Shown piece after piece: positions 4,150 through 60,323 of a stretch of 64,000 nt of DNA. The notes under the pieces are model-generated. The model was not told the DNA's origin. It saw nothing but the letters and a program-made list of their open reading frames with translations, and did no database searches. Location: positions 54,312,001-54,376,000 of the forward strand of contig CM126222.1 in NCBI GenBank assembly GCA_052327205.1, in the 5' to 3' direction. A program made the position numbers and the translations under genes. This DNA comes from Somniosus microcephalus. Its lineage: Eukaryota. Positions within the stretch are counted from its first letter, which is position 1. Every line of letters begins with the position of its first letter.

Positions 4150-6010
4150 GTGATCCAGTAGTTTAGCATTTATGGTACTGGACTAGATCCTTAGTTCCAA
4201 TTCCACCATGGCAAATTGTAAAAAGTAAATCTGGTAATTTGTGGGCTAGTACCAGAATAATAACCATGAAAGGTTGCCAGCTGGTTCACTAACCTCCTTC
4301 ACTTGATTCCAGTCCAGCTCTTAATGCCTAGTAAACCATTCAATTGTAAGTAATCACTATGAAGTTTATAAATTAAGAAAAAATTGGATGGACCTATTGG
4401 CAATAAAACATAAACAATTCCAGACCAGTTGACATGCACAGTCCTCCTCACTAACATCTGGGAACTGGTGTCCAATTTGGGAGACTAGTTAAATAACACA
4501 TAGTCATACTCACAGAATCATATCTATCAGCCGATATCCCAGATTCCTCCATCACCATTGCTGTGTGTGTCCTCACCCACCAGAAGTGGGAAAATGGTGG
4601 TATACAGTCAGGAAAACCTTTGAGGGAAGCAAGGGCATAAAATGTACTCTGGGTGAAGGACTTCAATGTCCATCACCAAGAGTGGATCACTTGTACTGAC
4701 CAAGTCTTGAAGGTGTTGAGGAACACAAGGAGGTAACCTACTTGACCTTGTGACCTACCTGTTGCATCCATGTCTGTCCACAATAGCATTGGTAGGACTA
4801 ACAGGAGGAGAAGGTTCCATGAACGTCCCCATTCCCAGCCATAATGGAACTCAGCACGCAAGTGCAAGAGACAAGGCTGAAGTGTTTGCAAGTACCTTCA
4901 GTCAAAAGTGTCGCTTTGACAATACTACTCGGCCTCCTCCTGAGGTCCCCAAGTGTACAGCCAATTTAGTTTCTTCTACGTGACATTCAGAAGTGGCTAA
5001 GCACACTGGACACAGCAAAGGCTAAGGGCCCTGACAGCATCCCAGTTGTAGTGCTGAGCACCTGTGCACCAACCAGAGCTAGCTGCTTCCCTAGCTGAGC
5101 TATTCCAGTACAGCTATGACACTGACATCAACACAACAATGTAGAAGATTGCCCCAAGTATGTTTCAACCACAAAAACAGATTAAATTTAACCTGGCCAA
5201 TTACCACCCTATCAGCCTCCTTTTCAATTGTCAGTAAAGTGATGGAAGTAGTCACAAATAGTGCATTGAATAGCACCAACTCACCAATAACCTGCTAACC
5301 AATGTTAATTTCAAGTTCTGCCAGAACCAGTCAGCTCAAAACTCACCACAGTTTCATACAGACATGGATGCAAGTGCTGAATGCCAGAAGAGAGATGACA
5401 GTACCTGTCCTTGACATCAAGGACAGCATTTGACCATGTACCAAGGAGCCCAAACAAAACTAGTGGTCAATGGGAAAATGCTTCAATGGCTGGAGTCATA
5501 CCTGATACAAAGGAAGATAGTTGTCGTCATTAGAGACCAATCATCACAGCCCCAGGACATTGCTACTGGAGTTCTTCAGGTAACCATTTTCATAAATGGC
5601 CTTCCCTCTATCATAAAATCAGGAGTGGGACTGTTCCCTGAGGAGTCCACGGTGTTCAGCTCTATTTACAACTCTTCTGAGAATGGAGCAGCCCATGTCA
5701 GTCTACAGCAGGATGCAGACAACATTTAGGTTTAGGCTGACAAGTGTCAGGTATTTGCACCACATAAGTGCCAGGTAATGATCATCTTGAATGAGATAAC
5801 ATCCGTCATCTCCCCTGACCTTCAATGGCACTACCATTGCCGAGTTCTCCCATTGATATCTTGGGGGGGGGGGTTACCATTGTGTAGGCACTTAACTGGG
5901 CCAACCATATCAACACCATGGCTACAAGAGAAGGGCAGAGGCTAAAGCTGCAATGAGTGGCTCATCTCCTGACCCCTCTAAACACTTATAAGGCTCAAGT
6001 CAGGAGTGTG
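4150..6010 (+). mobile_element. Old decayed LINE (CR1/L2/Crack group), 5' part, interrupted by the younger CR1
   Basis: RT remnants ARDKAEVFASTFSQKC (4750 ORF) and GKMLQWLESYLIQRKIVVVI...ATGVLQ..IFINGLPS (5430 ORF). Many stops and indels. Breaks at aagtcaggagtgtg and resumes at 10727 tgatggaatac. Confidence 0.75.
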
Positions 6011-6571
6011 TGTGAGTCATCAAAGAGTGCTGTGAGTTTGGGTAAGTGTGAGAGTTCTTTAATTGTTATTTCTCTTTAAATCATTCTTGATAAGATTACT
6101 TAAGCAGTTTAAGTAAAGGGGAAAAGTTAAATATTTGGGATTCTGTTGGTTTAAGAAGAGTAAAACAAGGTTACACTACAGTAGGAGTAAATTGGCACAG
6201 CAGGCAGTGGAAACCAGTTTTCTAACCAGTCAGCAGGGGTGACTCATTTGGCTGTAAACAAACAAACAGTATAAAAAGACCAGTCCTAGTGCGAGCAAGC
6301 AGTGAGTGCGAGTCATCAAAGAGTGCTGTGAGCTTGGGTAAGTATGAGTTAGGGTAAGTGGGGTGTTAGGTGCTCTTTTCAAACTTTAACTCTGTGGGTT
6401 GTAGTTAATAAGGCCTTTCTGGTGCAGAGTGACTGTTGGTAAACCATTTAACTGGTGTAACTAGAGGGATTGATTTAATTTAAATCCAATTAATTAAAGG
6501 GGATACTAGCATCTAAAATCGGGCAGAGGGTGTCCATAACTAACAATAAAAAATTTAATTAATTACATAGA

Positions 6572-7510
6572 ATGGAGCAGGTGATGTGTTACTGTTGCGA
6601 GATGTGGGAGCCGGTGAACCCCATTGAGGCTCACGGTGATTACGTCTGTGACATGTGTCTGCTGCTACAGGAACTCCAGCTCCGTGTTGATGAGCTGGAG
6701 TCTGAGCTTCAGACGCTGCGACACATCAGGGAGGGGGAGAAGTACCTGGACTCTGTGTATCAGGAGGTGGTCACACCTATGAAGTTAATTAATTCAGATG
6801 TAGCCCATGGTCAGGGACAGGACGGTGTGACTACGAGTGAGGCAGGTACGGGGATCCAGGAGGTAGAGCTGGAGGAGCCGCAGCCCTTGCTCTTGTCCAA
6901 CAGGTTCGAGGTTCTTACTCCCTGTGGGGACAGGAGCAGGGACTGCAGGGAGGATGAGCAACCTGGCCACAGCACCGTGGAACGGGGGGCCATTCAAGAG
7001 GGGGGAGTAAATAGAAATGTTGTAGTGGTAGGGGATAGTATTATTAGGGGGATAGATAGAGTTCTCTGCAGCCGAGAGCGAGAGTCCCGTAGGCTGTGTT
7101 GCCTACCCGGTGCCAGGGTTAAGGACATCTCCTCTGGGCTGGAAAGAAACTTGCAGTGGGAGGGGGTGGATCCAGTTGTCGTGGTCCATGTTGGTACAAA
7201 CAACGTAGATAGGACTAGGAAGCCAGTTCTGTTAAAGGAGTATGAGCAGCTAGGGGTCAAATTAAAAAACAGAACCTCAAGGGTAATAATCTCGCCACGA
7301 GCGAATTTGGCTAGGACAAATAAAATTAGAGAGTTAAATGCGTGGCTCAAAGACTGGTGTGGGAGAAATGGGTTTTGCTTCCTGGGACACTGGCACCAGT
7401 ACTGGGGCAGGAGGGAGCTGTTCCGTTGGGACGGGCTTCACTTGGCCAGTGCTGGGACTGGAGTCCTGGCGGATCATATAACTAGGGCTGTAGAGAGGGC
7501 TTTAAACTAA
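6572..7510 (+). CDS. CR1 ORF1p: zinc finger/leucine zipper plus SGNH esterase domain
   Basis: CxCCxMW...CxxC, heptad LQELQLRVDELESELQTL, SGNH blocks GDSIIRG, HVGTNN, DGLHL; ends ERALN*. Confidence 0.92.
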   Translation: MEQVMCYCCEMWEPVNPIEAHGDYVCDMCLLLQELQLRVDELESELQTLRHIREGEKYLDSVYQEVVTPMKLINSDVAHGQGQDGVTTSEAGTGIQEVELEEPQPLLLSNRFEVLTPCGDRSRDCREDEQPGHSTVERGAIQEGGVNRNVVVVGDSIIRGIDRVLCSRERESRRLCCLPGARVKDISSGLERNLQWEGVDPVVVVHVGTNNVDRTRKPVLLKEYEQLGVKLKNRTSRVIISPRANLARTNKIRELNAWLKDWCGRNGFCFLGHWHQYWGRRELFRWDGLHLASAGTGVLADHITRAVERALN

Positions 7511-7548
7511 CGAGTGGGGGGGAGGTTCCTAGAGAGCAAATAATAAAA

Positions 7549-10499
7549 ATGACAACAGAGAAGGTCATAGACTTAGGTAGCAGTGGGGAAATTAAAAACC
7601 AGAGCATGTCAGGAAGGGGCAGAAGGTATGGAGTAAAAGGTAAAGTAATCAAAAGGGCAAAAGCAGGAACTAAGCATCACAAAACATATTTGAAAGTTCT
7701 CTATCTGAATGCACGTAGCATTCGTAACAAAATAGACGAGTTAATGGCACAAATAACTACATATGGGTATGATCTTGTGGCCATTACAGAAACATGGCTG
7801 CAGGGTGACAATGCCTGGGAATTAAACATACCAGGTTATTTAACGATCAGGAAGGACAGGCAGGAAGGAAGGGGGGTGGGGTGGCTATGTTAATAAAGGA
7901 AGGAATCACTGTAATACAGAGAAATGATATTGGGTCAAAAGATCAGGATAATGAAACAGTTTGGGTGGAGGTAAGGAATAATAAGGGGAAAAAAACACGA
8001 GTGGGTGTAGTCTATAGGCCTCCGAACAGTTGCAACTCTGTTGGACGGAGTATCAATCAGGAAATAGTTGAGGCTTGTAATAAGGGAACATCTATAATTA
8101 TGGGGGATTTTAACTATCATATTAATTGGACAAATCAAATTGGGCAGGGCTGCCTTGAGGATGAGTTCATTGAGTGTATTAGGGATGGGTTTCTTGAGCA
8201 GTATGTAACTGAACCGACCAGGGGGCAAGCAACCTTAGATCTGGTCCTGTGTAATGAGACAGGATTAATTAAAAATGTCCTAGTAAAGGATCCCCTTGGA
8301 ATGAGCGACCATAACATGGTTGAATTCCATATTCAATTAGAGGGTGAGAAGGTTGGATCTCAAACAAGTGTGCTAAGCTTGAATAAAGGAGACTATGAAG
8401 GTATGAGAGCGGAATTGAGGAGAGTGGATTGGGAAAATAGATTAAAGGGTAAGACGATACATGATCAGTGGTGTACATTTAAAGAGTTATTTTACAACTT
8501 CCAAAAAATATATATTCCACTGAGAAGAAAAGGGTGTAAAAGAAAAGACAGCCATCCGTGGCTAAGTAAAGAAATTAAGGATAGTATTCAACTAAAAACA
8601 AGGGCATATAAGGTAGCCAAATCTAGTGGGAGGATAGAGGATTGGGAAAACTTTAAAAGACAGCAAAAAATAACAAAAAGATTGATTAAGAAAGGGAAGA
8701 TAGATTATGAAAGTAAATTAGCAAAAAATATAAAAACAGATAGTAAGAGTTTTTATAGTTATATAAAAAGAAAAAGGGTGGCTAAAGTAAATGTTGGTCC
8801 CTTAGAGGATGAGACCAGGAAATTAATGGTGGGAAATATGGAGATGGCAAAAACACTGAATGAATATTTTACATCAGTCTTTACAGTAGAAGACACTAAG
8901 AATATCCCAACACTGGACAAACAGGGGGCTATAGCGGGGGAGGAGCTAAACACGATCAAAATCACTAAGGAAGTGGTACTCGGTAAAATAATGGGACTCA
9001 AGGCGAATAAATCACCTGGACCTGATGGCTTACATCCTAGGGTCTTGAGGGAAGTGGCGGTAGGGATTGTGGATGCATTGGTAATAATTTTCCAAAACTC
9101 CCTGGACTCAGCAAAGGTCCCGGCAGACTGGAAAACTGCTAATGTAACACCCTTATTTAAAAAGGGCAGTAGACAGAAGGCTGGAAACTATAGACCGGTT
9201 AGCCTAACATCTGTGGTAGGTAAAATTTTGGAGTCCATTATTAAGGAGACAGTAACAGGACATTTGGATAATCATAATTTAATAGGACAAAGTCAGCATG
9301 GTTTTATGAAGGGGAAGTCATGTTTGACAAATTTGCTGGAGTTCTTTGAGGAAGTAACATATAGGGTGGATAAAGGGGAACCAGTGGACGTAGTGTATTT
9401 AGACTTCCAAAAGGCATTTGACAAGGTGCCACACAAAAGATTATTGCTTAAGATAAAAAATCACGGGATTGGGGGTAATATTCTGGCATGGATAGAGGAT
9501 TGGCTATCTAACAGAAGGCAGAGAGTTGGGATAAATGGTTCATTCTCAGACTGGCAATCAGTAACTAGTGGTGTTCCGCAGGGGTCAGTGCTGGGTCCCC
9601 AACTCTTTACAATCTATATTAACGATTTGGAGGAGGGGACCGAGTGTAACATATCAAAGTTTGCAGATGATACTAAGATGGGAGGGAAAGTAGTGAGTGA
9701 GGAGGACATAAAAAACCTGCAAGGGGACATAGACAGGTTAAGTAAGTGGGCAGAGATTTGGCAGATGGAATACAATACTGGAAAGTGTGAGGTTATGCAC
9801 TTTGGCAGGAAAAATCGTAGAGCAAGTTATTATCTTAATGGCAAGAAACTGGAAAGTACTGAAGTACAAAGGGATCTGGGGGTCCTGGTGCACGAAACTC
9901 AAAAGGTTAGTATGCAGGTGCAGCAAGTGATTAAGAAGGCCAATGGAATGTTGGCTTTCATTGCTAGGGGGATAGAATATAAAAATAGGGAGATATTGCT
10001 TCAGTTGTACAAGGTATTGGTGAGACCGCACCTGGAATACTGCATACAGTTTTGGTGTCCATACTTAAGAAAAGACATACTTGCTCTCGAGTCAGTACAA
10101 AGAAGGTTCACTCGGTTAATCCCGGGGATGAGGGGATGGACATATGAGGAGAGGTTGAGTAGATTGGGACTCTACTCATTGGAGTTCAGAAGAATGAGAG
10201 GCGATCTTATTGAAACATATAAGATTGTGAGGGGGTTGGATCGGGTGGATGCGGGGAGGATGTTCCCGATGATGGGTGAAACTAGAACTAGGGGGCATAG
10301 TCTTAGAATAAGGGGCTGCTCTTTCAAAACTGAGATGAGGAGGAACTACTTCACTCAGAGGGTGGTAGGTCCATGGAATATGCTGCCCCAAAAAGCTGTA
10401 GAAGCTACATCATTACATACATTTAAAACAGAAATAGACAGTTTCCTAGAAGTAAAGGGAATTAAGGGTTACGGGGAGCGGGCAGGAATTTGGACATGA
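7549..10499 (+). CDS. CR1 ORF2p: AP endonuclease + reverse transcriptase, with one frameshift in the G-run at 7871-7876
   Basis: YLNARSIRNK, AITETW, VYRPP, GDFN, LDLV, SDHN (APE); NYRPVSLTS, YLDFQKAFD, GVPQGSVLGP, FADD (RT). Adding one G joins the 7549 and 7881 ORFs as RQEGRGGGVAMLIK. Confidence 0.93.
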
Positions 10500-10726
10500 G
10501 TCTAGGTTCGGATCGGACATGGCCCTGTGGGTAGTGGAGCGGGCCCAGGGGCCGTGTAGCCTGGTCCTGCTCCTATTTCGTGTGTCTAATTCTGTTAGAT
10601 TCGGGAGATGGTTCTGTGATAGTAGATTGGCGGTTCGGATCAGATCAGCCATGATCTTATTGAATGGCGGAGCAGGCTCAAGGGGCCGATTGGCCTACTC
10701 CTGCTCCTATTTCTTATGTTCTTATG

Positions 10727-54473: not shown

Positions 54474-56735
54474 ACATAGGATATACGGCACAGAAACAGG
54501 CCATTCGGCCCAACCAGTCCATGCCGGCATTTATGCTCCACACGAGCCTCCTCCCGTCTTTCCTCATCTAAATCTATCAGCATAACCCTCTATTCCCTTC
54601 TCCCTCATAGGCTTGTCTAGCCTCCCCTTAAATGCATCTATACTATTCGCTTCAACCACTCCCTGTGGTAGTGAGTTCCACATTCTCACCACTCTTTGGG
54701 TAAAGAAGTTTCTTCTGAATTCCCTATTGGATTTCTTGGTGACTATCTTATATTGATGGCCTCTAGTTATGCTCTTCCCCACAAGTGGAACATTCTCTGT
54801 ATCCACTCTATCAACATTTTTCATAATTTTAAAGACCTCTATTAGGTCACCCCTCAGCCTTTTTTCAAGAGAAATCATCCTTTCCTGATATGTATACCCT
54901 CGCATTTCTGGTATCATCCTTGTAAATCTTCTCTGCACCCTCTGCGGTGCCTTAATATACTTTTTATGATATGGCGACCAGAACTGTACGCAGTACTTTA
55001 AGTGTGGTCTAACCAAGGTTCGATACAGGTTTAGCATAACTTTGCTACTTTTCAATTCTATCCCTCTCGAAATAAACCCTAGTGCTTGGTTTGCTTTTTT
55101 AATGGCCTTGCTAACCTGTGCTACAACGTTTAGTGATTTGTGTATTTGTACTCCTAGATCCCTTTGTTCCTCTACCCCACCTAGACTCGCACACCCCAAG
55201 TGATAAGTGACCTCCCTATTCTTACCAAAATGTAATACCTCACATTTATCTGTGTTGAACTTAATTTGCCAATTATATGCCCATCCTGCAAGTTTACTAA
55301 CGTCCTCCTGTAAGTTGTTGCAGTCCTCCTCAGTATTGACTATCCCCCCCCACCCCGCCCCCCGCCAATTTTGGTGTCATCTGCAAATTTAGAAATTGTG
55401 TTTTTTGATTCCGAAGTCTAAATCGTTAATGTAAATTGTGAACAGCAGTGATCCCAGCACTGATCCTTGTGGAACACCACTACCCACCTTCTGCCACTGT
55501 GAATCGCTACCCTTTACTCCCACTCTCTGTTTTCTGTCCTGAAGCCAGCCAGCAATCCATTCTGCTACTTGTCCCCTGACTCCGCATTCTCTGACCTTGG
55601 TCATCAGTCTATTATGGGATACCTCGTCGAAGGTCTTTTGAAAATCCAGATAAATTACATCTACTGCAGTACCATTGTCTACTCTCTCTGTTACCTCTTC
55701 AAAAAATTCAGTAAGGTTGGTCAAGCAAGACTTTCCCTTTTGAAATCCATGCTGACTATTCATTATTATATTTTTGGTTTCTAGACGTTCTTCTATTTTC
55801 TCCTTTAGTAGGGATTCCATTATTTTTCCTATCACCAATGTTAAGCTGACTGGTCTATAATTTCCTGGACATGTTCTATCCCCCTTCTTAAATATAGGTA
55901 TTACGTCAGCTATCCGCCAGTCTTCTGGCACTATACCTTTTTCTAACGAATTATTAAATATGCGTAGTAATGCCTCTGCTATCTCTTCCCGAGATTCCTT
56001 TAAAATGCGTGGATGCAATCCATCCGGACCAGGGGTTTTATCCTCTTTGAATTTGATTATTTATTTAATATATCCCTTTATTTTAAATGCTCCTATCTCA
56101 TTACTAATCTCATTATCCAATGTCATGTCCACCTGTTCTATCTCCCTGGTAAATACTGAAGCAAAATGATTATTTAATATTTCTGCCATCTTTCTATCGT
56201 TACCTGTGGTATTATCCAAACAATCCCTTAATGTCCCTATTCCTATCCCAATCTTCCTTTTTTATTGATGTGCCTATAAAATATTTTACAATTTTGTTTT
56301 ATGTTCCTTGATAATTTAATTTCATAGTTCCTCTTTGCCTCCCTGATTGTTTTATTGACTTCTCTACTAATCTTTTTGTATTCTCTCTTATCATGCACTC
56401 CCCTGCTGTCTCTGTACTTAATGTATGCCTCTTTCTTTACCCTCAATTGTTCCCTTATGGCTTTATTCATCCATGGAGTCTCATTATTGTTTAGTTTGTT
56501 CTTTCGTTTTAGTGGAATATATTTTTCCTGCATTCTGTTGAACACCGTTTTAAATGTTTCCCATTGCTGGTCTACATCGTTGTTTGCCAATATTGTTGCC
56601 CAATTTTTTCCCAATTTCTATTCTCAGCCCCTCAAAATCAGCTTTTCTCCAAACTATTAACCTGGTTTTCATCATACTTCTGTCCTTTTCAATTATCATC
56701 TTAAAGCATATTATATTCTGTCTTAAAGCGTATTA
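54474..56735 (-). mobile_element. 5'-truncated CR1 with frameshifted ORF2
   Basis: ORFs 56243-56614, 55389-56018 (NYRPVSLT, YLDFQKTFD, GVPQGSVLG), 54564-55199 (RPHLKYCVQFWSP, FFTQRVVRMWNSLP); CR1 3' UTR. Confidence 0.95.
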
Positions 56736-56741
56736 CACTTG

Positions 56742-57885
56742 CACACCTACACCAGGCACACACTCACTCCTACACCAGGCACACACTCACACACCGACAC
56801 CAGGCACATTCACACACCTACACCAGGCACACTCACACACACCTACACCAGGCACACTCACACACACCTACACACCTACACCAGGCACACTCACACACCT
56901 ACACCAGGCACACTCACACACCTACACCAGGCACACTCACACACCTACACCAGGCACACTCACACACACCTACACCAGGCACACTCACACACTCCTACAC
57001 CAGGCACACTCACACACACCTACACCAGGCACACTCACACACTCCTACACCAGGCACACTCTCACACTCCTACACCAGGCACACTCACACACTCCTACAC
57101 CAGGCACACTCACACACTCCTACACCAGGCACACTCACACAATCCTACACCAGGCACACTCACACACTCCTACACCAGGCACACTCACACAATCCTACAC
57201 CAGGCACACTCACACACTCCTACACCAGGCACACTCACACTCCTACACCAGGCACACTCACACACCTACACCAGGCACACTCACACACACCTACACCAGG
57301 CACACTCACACTCCTACACCAGGCACACTCTCACACCTACACCAGGCACACTCACACACTCCTACACCAGGCACACTCACACACTCCTACACCAGGCACA
57401 CTCACACACACCTACACCAGGCACACTCTCACACCTACACCAGGCACACTCACACACACCTACACCAGGCACACTCACACACACCTACACCAGGCACACT
57501 CACACACTCCTACACCAGGCACACTCACACACACCTACACCAGGCACACTCACACACACCTACACCAGGCACACTCACACACACCTACACCAGGCACACT
57601 CACACACACCTACACTAGGCACACTCACACACACCTACACCAGGCACACTCACACACACCTACACCAGGCACACTCACACACACCTACACCAGGCACACT
57701 CACACACTCCTACACCAGGCACACTCACACACCTACACCAGGCACACTCACACACACCTACACCAGGCACACTCACACACCTACACCAGGCACACTCACA
57801 CACACCTACACCAGGCACACTCACACTCCTACACCAGGCACACTCACACACCTACACCAGACACACTCACACACACCTACACCAG

Positions 57886-57936
<51 letters not shown>

Positions 57937-59086
57937 CACCAGGCACACTCACACTCCTACACCAGGCACACTCACACTCCTACACCAGGCACACTCACAC
58001 ACTCCTACACCAGGCACACTCACACACACACCTACACCAGGCACACACACACACTCCTACACCAGGCACTCACACACACCTACACCAGGCACACACACAC
58101 ACTCCTACACCAGGCACACTCACACTCCTACACCAGGCACACTCTCACACCTACACCAGGCACACTCACACTCCTACACCAGGCACACTCTCACACCTAC
58201 ACCAGGCACACTCACACACACCTACACCAGGCACACTCACACACACCTACACCAGACACACTCACACACCTACACCAGACACTCTCACACCTACACCAGG
58301 CACACACACACACCTACACCAGGCACACTCACACACCTACACCAGGCACACTCACACACCTACACCAGGCACACTCACACACCTACACCAGGCACACTCA
58401 CACACCTACACCAGGCACACTCACAAACTCCTACACCAGGCACACTCACACACCTACACCAGGCACACTCACACACACCTACACCAGGCACACTCACACA
58501 CCTACACCAGACACACTCACACACCTACACCAGGCACACTCACACACCTACACCAGACACACTCACACACCTACACCAGACACTCACACACTCCTACACC
58601 AGGCACACTCACACACCTACACCAGGCACACTCACACACCTACACCAGGCACACTCTCACACTCCTACACCAGGCACACTCACACACACCTACACCAGGC
58701 ACACTCACACACTCCTACACCAGGCACACTCACACACACCTACACCAGGCACACTCACACACACCTACACCAGGCACACTCACACACACCTACACCAGGC
58801 ACACTCACACACACCTACACCAGACACACTCACACACACCTACACCAGGCACACTCACACACACCTACACCAGGCACACTCACACACTCCTACACCAGGC
58901 ACACACACACCTACACCAGGCACACTCACACACCTACACCAGGCACACTCACACACACCTACACCAGGCACACTCACACACCTACACCAGGCACACTCAC
59001 ACACACCTACACCAGGCACACTCACACTCCTACACCAGGCACACTCACACACCTACACCAGACACACTCACACACACCTACACCAG

Positions 59087-59139
<53 letters not shown>

Positions 59140-60323
59140 CACCAGGCACACTCACACTCCTACACCAGGCACACTCACACTCCTACACCAGGCACACTCA
59201 CACACTCCTACACCAGGCACACTCACACACACACCTACACCAGGCACACACACACACTCCTACACCAGGCACACACACACACCTACACCAGACACACTCA
59301 CACACCTACACCAGACACTCACACACCTACACCAGGCACACTCACACACCTACACCAGGCACACTCACACACCTACACCAGGCACACTCACACACCTACA
59401 CCAGGCACACTCACACACCTACACCAGGCACACTCACACACCTACACCAGGCACACTCACAAACTCCTACACCAGGCACACTCACACACCTACACCAGGC
59501 ACACTCACACACACCTACACCAGGCACACTCACACACCTACACCAGGCACACTCACACACCTACACCAGGCACACTCACACACCTACACCAGACACACTC
59601 ACACACCTACACCAGGCACACTCACACACCTACACCAGACACACTCACACACCTACACCAGACACACTCACACACCTACACCAGGCACACTCACACACCT
59701 ACACCAGACACACTCACACACCTACACCAGACACTCACACACTCCTACACCAGGCACACTCACACACCTACACCAGGCACACTCACACACCTACACCAGG
59801 CACACTCTCACACTCCTACACCAGGCACACTCACACTCCTACACCAGGCACACTCTCACACCTACACCAGGCACACACTCACACCTACACCAGGCACACT
59901 CACACACTCCTACACCAGGCACACTCTCACACTCCTACCCCAGGCACACTCACACACTCCTACACCAGGCACACTCACACACTCCTACACCAGGCACACA
60001 CTCACACCTACACCAGGCACACTCACACACTCCTACACCAGGCACACACACACACACACCTACACCAGGCACACTCACACACACCTACACCAGGCACACT
60101 CACACACTCCTACACCAGGCACACTCACACACTCCTACACCAGGCACACTCACACACACCTACACCAGGCACACTCACACACACCTACACCAGGCACACT
60201 CACACACACCTACACCAGGCACACTCACACACCTACACCAGGCACACTCACACACACCTACACCAGGCACACTCACACACCTACACCAGACACACTCACA
60301 CACACCTACACCAGGCACACTGA
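56742..60323. repeat. 3.6-kb CA-rich minisatellite, unit CCTACACCAGGCACACT(CA)n of about 20-28 bp
   Basis: Directly visible; embedded long (CA)n runs at ~57886 and ~59087. Confidence 0.97.

Follow-up and report, generated by a model that had tools for sequence, protein, structure and literature searches.

A conserved slippery heptamer, stop codon and G run at the ORF1/ORF2 junction of a CR1-type LINE of Somniosus microcephalus suggest programmed −1 ribosomal frameshifting

Introduction

The ORF1a/1b −1 frameshift of coronaviruses uses, in infectious bronchitis virus, the heptamer U_UUA_AAC (PMC5009743, PMC7618472). Among long interspersed nuclear elements (LINEs), the Dictyostelium non-long-terminal-repeat elements TRE5-A and TRE3-A are stated to need a −1 frameshift for the translation of open reading frame 2 (ORF2) (PMC5911963), so the mechanism as such is not new to LINEs. 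The LINE cases that have been worked out rely on reinitiation, which is independent of AUG for ORF2 of L1 (PMC5009743) and proceeds by UAAUG stop-start coupling for ORF2 of SART1 (PMC5009743, PMC3708506, PMC3894237), and the translation of ORF2 from a two-gene LINE RNA has been named an open question (PMC3894237, PMC3708506). Here we describe a near full-length CR1-type LINE (~6011-10722, + strand) in a 64,000-nt stretch of the Somniosus microcephalus genome (GCA_052327205.1, contig CM126222.1, 54,312,001 to 54,376,000; "the window", numbered from its first letter), in which ORF1 and ORF2 overlap at U_UUA_AAC. Judging from its sequence and conservation, this junction is probably a programmed −1 ribosomal frameshift (PRF) signal that would yield an ORF1-ORF2 fusion.

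Both the heptamer and its phase are those of the coronavirus ORF1a/1b junction, and in both cases the enzyme ORF lies in the −1 frame. Unlike the coronavirus signal, which is viral, the present one is hosted by a LINE, lacks a stem-loop 5-9 nt downstream, has no partner strand that we could find and is directly followed by the stop codon. [quoted passage not shown] The LINE resembles it, as far as sequence alone tells, in having no evident downstream structure and a short conserved linear motif 11 nt past the shift site; the PRRSV motif is CCCANCUCC whereas that of the LINE is G-rich, the heptamers differ, and PRRSV shifts by −2 and −1 whereas in the LINE only the −1 frame is open for long. 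G-quadruplexes (G4s) can stimulate −1 frameshifting in constructs (PMC3919603), and a review of 2016 stated that natural stimulation by a G4 was not then known (PMC5009743).

Among LINEs, TRE5-A and TRE3-A share with the present element, by description and not by comparison of shift sites, the APE-type endonuclease and a −1 shift for ORF2, but they are amoebal and targeted to tRNA genes whereas this element is animal and carries an esterase ORF1. L1 and SART1 are likewise bicistronic LINE RNAs with low ORF2 output; they give a separate ORF2 protein, whereas in the present element the two ORFs overlap at a slippery site, and a SART1-like UAAUG is found in only one sampled family of the present LINEs. 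ZfL2-1 has, as here, an SGNH esterase ORF1 followed by an endonuclease-reverse transcriptase (RT) ORF2, and its esterase binds liposomes (PMC3905857); the word "frameshift" does not occur in that paper. CR1 goes unmentioned in the examined text of the review PMC5009743, and no report of CR1 frameshifting was found in the literature searched, the classic CR1 papers, which may already note the overlap or the site, being outside our reach.

Results and Discussion

Heptamer and reading frames at the junction

The features around the junction are the following.

6572..7510, + strand, ORF1, 312 aa, with an N-terminal Cys cluster and an SGNH/GDSL esterase domain; C-terminus ...RALN*
7486..7510, + strand, ORF1/ORF2 overlap, −1 frame open from 7486
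7501..7507, + strand, U_UUA_AAC slippery heptamer in ORF1 phase
7508..7510, + strand, ORF1 stop, directly 3′ of the heptamer, TAA or TAG among relatives
7516..7522, + strand, G run; its core 7518-7522 (+11 to +15) is the conserved 3′ element and candidate stimulator
7511..7701, + strand, basic −1-frame linker from shift site to endonuclease; in-frame ATG 7549 in the window's subfamily only
7702..10499, + strand, ORF2 endonuclease and RT (PF03372, PF14529, PF00078), with a frame break near 7870 in the window copy

A preliminary description of this DNA had placed TTTAAAC at 7501-7507, in ORF1 phase and just before the stop, with ORF2 in the −1 frame and a G7 run downstream, and all three placements hold. 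ORF1 ends GCT TTA AAC TAA, that is T_TTA_AAC, so that an X_XXY_YYZ heptamer stands in the zero frame, as is canonical for −1 PRF; the −1 frame stays free of stops over 7486-7893, spanning the first endonuclease motif (Asn codon 7708-7710) and including the ATG at 7549; and the G7 run occupies 7516-7522, with an 8-nt spacer from the heptamer. In the window the −1 frame is closed by a stop at 7483-7485, and so opens 22 nt ahead of the ORF1 stop. The same opening 22 nt before the ORF1 stop is seen in 15 of the 21 lineage representatives taken from this genome (see below), which makes for a constant short overlap. TTTAAAC alone is not rare, with 10 occurrences per strand (20 in total) among 480/470 words of X_XXY_YYZ type in the window; its significance therefore rests on position and conservation.

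Conservation of the heptamer

From 535 candidates of the element's own subfamily 40 were scored and 30 fetched, the window copy included. They carry TTTAAAC in 29/30 cases and TTTAAAT in 1/30, with a −1 frame open for at least 300 codons in 17/30, and at 98-100% identity they are too alike for selection to be read from them. A second sample was blind to the junction. It was drawn with a pattern on the esterase motif, ~26 codons upstream, which gave 23,969 matches in the genome and 0 in the control, and the first 100 listed comprised 86 TTTAAAC, 5 TTTAAAT, 8 other sequences and 1 unmapped copy. With 30 copies from a second pattern and the window copy, 130 junctions were mapped, and the endonuclease motif was located in 105 of them and not found in 25. 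A variable ORF2 frame had been named in the preliminary description as an observation that would speak against frameshifting; we found the motif in the −1 frame in 92/105 copies, open in 85 and with a stop in 7, and in another frame in 13. Across subfamilies the linker measures 45 to 86 codons, always in whole codons.

To follow the heptamer across lineages we used 38 hand-picked real copies as representatives, 21 from this genome and 17 from metagenomes (out of 46 loci whose junction was recovered). Eight whose frames were broken (TTTAAAC in six, TTCAAAC and TTTAAAT in one each) were removed, leaving 30. Between their 8 clusters (<70% nucleotide identity) four-fold sites agree at 1,397/4,300 positions (0.325), near saturation. 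The terminal Leu is TTA in 29/30 and the terminal Asn AAC in 30/30, against a background in which TTA makes up 15% of Leu and AAC 38% of Asn codons; as controls, all six codons occur at the invariant Leu of DGLHL (TTA in 1/30) and a conserved upstream Asn is AAT in 19 and AAC in 7 of the 30. The heptamer begins with T in 28/30, though the codon to which that base belongs specifies 8 different amino acids. On the protein tree the heptamer positions need 2, 1 and 0 parsimony changes, versus 3-11 at 12 conserved control codons, and the ORF1 stop codon needs 6.

Genome-wide, the heptamer followed by a stop, 7 nt and GGGGG gave 58,747 matches versus 17 in the control, and the version with a synonymous CTN Leu codon 108 versus 38, as scattered single copies; a variant in which two non-G letters precede the G run gave 39,401 genome matches, from which nothing further was learned. 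By the codon, first-base, tree and CTN-Leu tests the heptamer is conserved beyond amino-acid need, as expected of a −1 PRF site, and the synonymous variation that had been proposed as evidence against frameshifting is nearly absent across lineages.

The heptamer is not universal, being absent from the more distant esterase-ORF1 LINEs L086, L095 and L097. There (L095:2736, L097:739, L086:2923) the ORF1 stop is TGA, the next codon is CTG, and the frame continues open beyond it, in L095 as far as an endonuclease motif 279 nt on, which makes the junction a candidate for stop-codon readthrough; in L095 and L097 an ATG overlaps the codon preceding the ORF1 stop.

ORF1 endings in relatives

Endings of the ...LN* type had been ascribed to other vertebrate CR1s in the preliminary description, and they are indeed the rule. 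Of 120 listed ORF1 homologues, 106 could be scored (those with the esterase motif near the C end), and 86/106 end LN, the remainder ending SN (9), GN (2) or otherwise (9). Named sources of LN-ending proteins are rays, sharks, coelacanth, a teleost, frogs, turtles, lizards, birds and a sea cucumber. Among 135 further, more distant representatives 84 were scorable, with 40 LN, 10 GN and 1 KN, and a dipeptide compatible with XXY_YYZ ends 52/84, versus a background of 6.3%. LN, GN and KN are the dipeptides encoded by U_UUA_AAC, G_GGA_AAC and A_AAA_AAC, three heptamers that are counted among the four most shifty (PMC5009743). The distance from the esterase motif to the ORF1 end varies from 24 to 39 residues while the signal stays locked to ORF1 phase and stop. 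The SN-ending proteins (P0072-P0091) form a coherent group with one member named from a sea cucumber; were the mechanism shared, the shift site of this group would have to be non-standard. Two weak DNA matches for GN/SN relatives proved by tblastn not to be CR1.

The 3′ element

The stimulator put forward in the preliminary description, a GGA/UCC hairpin, has only 3 bp, and the 80 nt past the stop fold no better than shuffles (z of +0.3 in the window copy and −1.9 to +1.0 in 36 representatives); this hairpin is therefore rejected. A local stem-loop 5-9 nt downstream is likewise absent from the 36 representatives. The G run, by itself, is conserved, with G at +11 to +15 from the heptamer in 36, 34, 33, 30 and 32 of the 36, and on the tree these sites change 1-3 times each versus 4-12 times at +4 to +10 and 6-10 times at +16 to +20. 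In the −1 frame, +11 and +14 fall on third codon positions. At +11, A never occurs, versus background counts of CAG 58 / CAA 35 and AAG 82 / AAA 106, and the following codon is GGG in 26/36 versus 55/206 background Gly codons, so that the signal is one at the nucleotide level. The conserved signal is in three parts: U_UUA_AAC, the ORF1 stop and a G5 run at +11 to +15. Like PRRSV, it has a conserved unstructured motif ~11 nt downstream, the G5, whose sequence differs from the viral one.

As for pairing or stacking of the G run, a duplex scan found no homologous downstream partner, most loci ending 1.1-2.5 kb past the stop. Pairing with the upstream CLPG codons (~420 nt 5′) recurred in the scans and was discarded, being no better than in swapped pairs (p = 0.27). 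G4Hunter-type scores reach at least 1.2 in 21/32 and at least 1.5 in 9/32 representatives, and ViennaRNA predicts no G4 in the window copy.

Start codons and linker

There is no conserved position for an AUG. Among 21 lineages whose linker is intact, Met is missing ahead of the first endonuclease motif in 8, and likewise in 18/20 and 15/15 copies of two abundant subfamilies; L179 and L182 lack Met for ~200 codons, beyond both conserved endonuclease motifs. A conserved UAAUG overlap of the SART1 type is absent from the window copy and most lineages and present in one family only. Since L1 reinitiation is AUG-independent, a missing AUG does not by itself decide against reinitiation. Across the 21 lineages the linker has 0 stops in the −1 frame versus 74 and 103 in the other two; these rows were chosen for an intact linker, which makes the −1 count circular and leaves the AUG and other-frame counts usable.

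RNA reads, long proteins and viral contigs

Two raw RNA-seq runs, picked by species label, were aligned to 5900-8300 and 7440-7580, and 3,211 and 4,296 reads fell on the latter interval. At the junction neither run showed a joint, a pile of read starts or ends, or a heptamer indel at a level of at least 1%; indels were confined to the G run and position 7551 (contigs from a large run whose kind is not recorded show the G-run insertion too), and the 40 RNA-read substitutions listed include none in the heptamer. Many copies and both strands contribute reads, so these are a mild argument against splicing and transcriptional slippage and none on autonomous expression.

Twelve longer protein matches in total are weak evidence either way. 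Four long database proteins that continue from the esterase to the endonuclease (P0037, P0121, P0127, P0129) were considered as natural fusions and rejected, as each, by its protein sequence, resembles a single copy in which an indel has arisen close to the junction. In viral contigs the signal pattern occurs in 62 stretches, none of which matches an ORF1 C-terminus or an endonuclease, and the ORF1 alignment found no match there.

Proposed mechanism and alternatives

That the heptamer and a G5 at fixed distance are kept letter for letter in distant relatives suggests that ORF2 is likely made by a one-base backward slip. Most ribosomes would terminate at the ORF1 stop and release the esterase ORF1 protein (ORF1p), while a minority would pause with P-site UUA and A-site AAC, slip to UUU and AAA and read through the basic linker into the endonuclease and RT; the product would be a Gag-Pol-like fusion of ORF1 and ORF2, made at a low, fixed ratio. 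The most likely source of the pause is the G run, which would work at the mRNA entry channel as a linear element, via a bound protein or, in G-richer families, as a G4, and the adjacent stop may aid it. This stimulator step is the weakest part of the proposal, and on sequence grounds we would give it about even odds; by analogy, either a PRRSV-like protein or a G4 could apply. If a protein reads the G5, it could be a host factor or ORF1p itself, in which case the system would be self-regulating. The wider proposition, that an ancient and large branch of animal LINEs, the esterase-ORF1 CR1 elements, makes its RT as a Gag-Pol-like fusion through a structure-free −1 shift, with a linear G5 at +11 read by a protein or folded as a G4, and that one vertebrate genome thus holds tens of thousands of copies of such a signal, is offered tentatively, and we think it somewhat more likely to fail than to hold in full.

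Several observations weigh against frameshifting. The canonical stimulator is missing, neither stem-loop nor long-range partner having been found by folding and duplex scans. The representatives were hand-picked, and the TTCAAAC and TTTAAAT cases were among the 8/38 dropped; the 13 copies with the endonuclease motif in another frame and the 7 with a stop, out of 105, are read here as probably decayed. Thirteen of the 21 lineages do have a Met ahead of the first endonuclease motif, at codon 3 to 73; it stands at codon 16 in 29/30 copies of the window's subfamily and at codon 19 in 21/21 copies of a third subfamily. One family (L124, L150, L169) combines the heptamer with a TAATG stop-start overlap in the −1 frame, and three bird-like loci (L061, L062, L065) have an ATG 2 nt past the stop. 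As for the ORF1 endings, 32/84 distant representatives end in an incompatible dipeptide, the profile behind that set was built from LN-rich rows, the 9/106 SN endings misfit a strict heptamer and are known from protein only, and a search of DNA for GN- and SN-ending relatives found none; the endings are thus supportive and not decisive.

Part of these observations would suit termination-reinitiation, whether AUG-independent as in L1 or, with an AUG close by, SART1-like, in which the heptamer and G run would hold or position the post-termination ribosome until it restarts in the −1 frame just past the stop. The mechanism is described for both elements (PMC5009743, PMC3708506, PMC3894237), it would likewise keep the −1 linker open, and the TAATG family and the three bird-like loci have a start codon where it could serve. 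We nevertheless consider it unlikely as the general explanation, as it leaves unexplained the in-phase X_XXY_YYZ identity of the conserved letters, the T before the Leu codon across 8 amino acids and the switch to GN and KN endings in distant relatives, and the AUG lies anywhere from codon 3 to 73 or, in 8/21 lineages, is missing. In families with a nearby AUG, frameshifting and reinitiation may coexist.

TTTAAA is palindromic, many RNA-binding proteins attach to G runs, and conservation of nucleotides alone names no process, so the motif might instead be a DNA- or RNA-level element outside translation (for packaging, splicing or an internal promoter of an ORF2 mRNA) or a site of transcriptional slippage. 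This we regard as improbable to a clearly greater degree than reinitiation, in view of the RNA runs, many-copy and both-stranded as their reads are, and of a motif that keeps to ORF1 phase and stop whatever the distance of the esterase motif. A requirement of the protein for terminal Leu-Asn, with codons shared by descent or A/T bias, could appeal to LN being the commonest ending and to the relatedness of the shark-type subfamilies. It is largely refuted, and we give it next to no weight, because equally conserved nearby Leu and Asn residues switch codons freely, the background use of TTA and AAC is low, at the percentages given above, and no CTN-Leu family has expanded.

Should −1 frameshifting hold, a widespread animal LINE group would have an answer to ORF2 translation that differs from the reinitiation of L1 and SART1 and is retrovirus-like. 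The RT would be tethered to a lipid-binding esterase, the start of ORF2 would move in annotations, and CR1 could be exposed to anti-frameshift host factors.

Other features of the element and the window

ORF1 runs from the ATG at 6572 to the stop at 7508-7510 and matches PF13472 with E 1.3e-7 and 32.7 bits, just below the curated cut-off of 32.9. Its 778 homologues come from sources that include sharks, rays, turtles and birds, the best named matches being to rays and sharks. An SGNH esterase ORF1 together with an APE endonuclease and RT in ORF2 is the architecture of a CR1-clade LINE with esterase ORF1; the label CR1 is one that we take from this architecture, not from RT placement. In the window copy the ORF2 frame is broken near 7870, in the endonuclease, which the preliminary description does not mention, and the remainder (7809-10499) lies in another frame. 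Its ORF1 also seems ~5 codons short near 7293, where the reads of relatives carry them.

The element is bounded by two untranslated regions (UTRs).

6011..6571, + strand, 5′ UTR of the CR1-type LINE (5′ end approximate), in which a 51-nt unit repeats with a spacing of 296 nt
10500..10722, + strand, 3′ UTR; a 39-nt stretch is duplicated within it, and a short octamer repeat is terminal

The 51-nt unit of the 5′ UTR lies at 6002-6052 and 6298-6348, and the depth of reads and contigs climbs at ~5981-6061, near the 5′ end of the LINE. The duplicated 39 nt of the 3′ UTR are found at 10547-10585 and 10681-10719, an offset of 134 nt. Elsewhere in the window, an RT-like fragment lies on the − strand at 55881-56051, and positions 56001-60000 are strongly skewed towards C and A (GC skew −0.6 to −0.7, AT skew up to 0.58), probably reflecting a simple repeat array.

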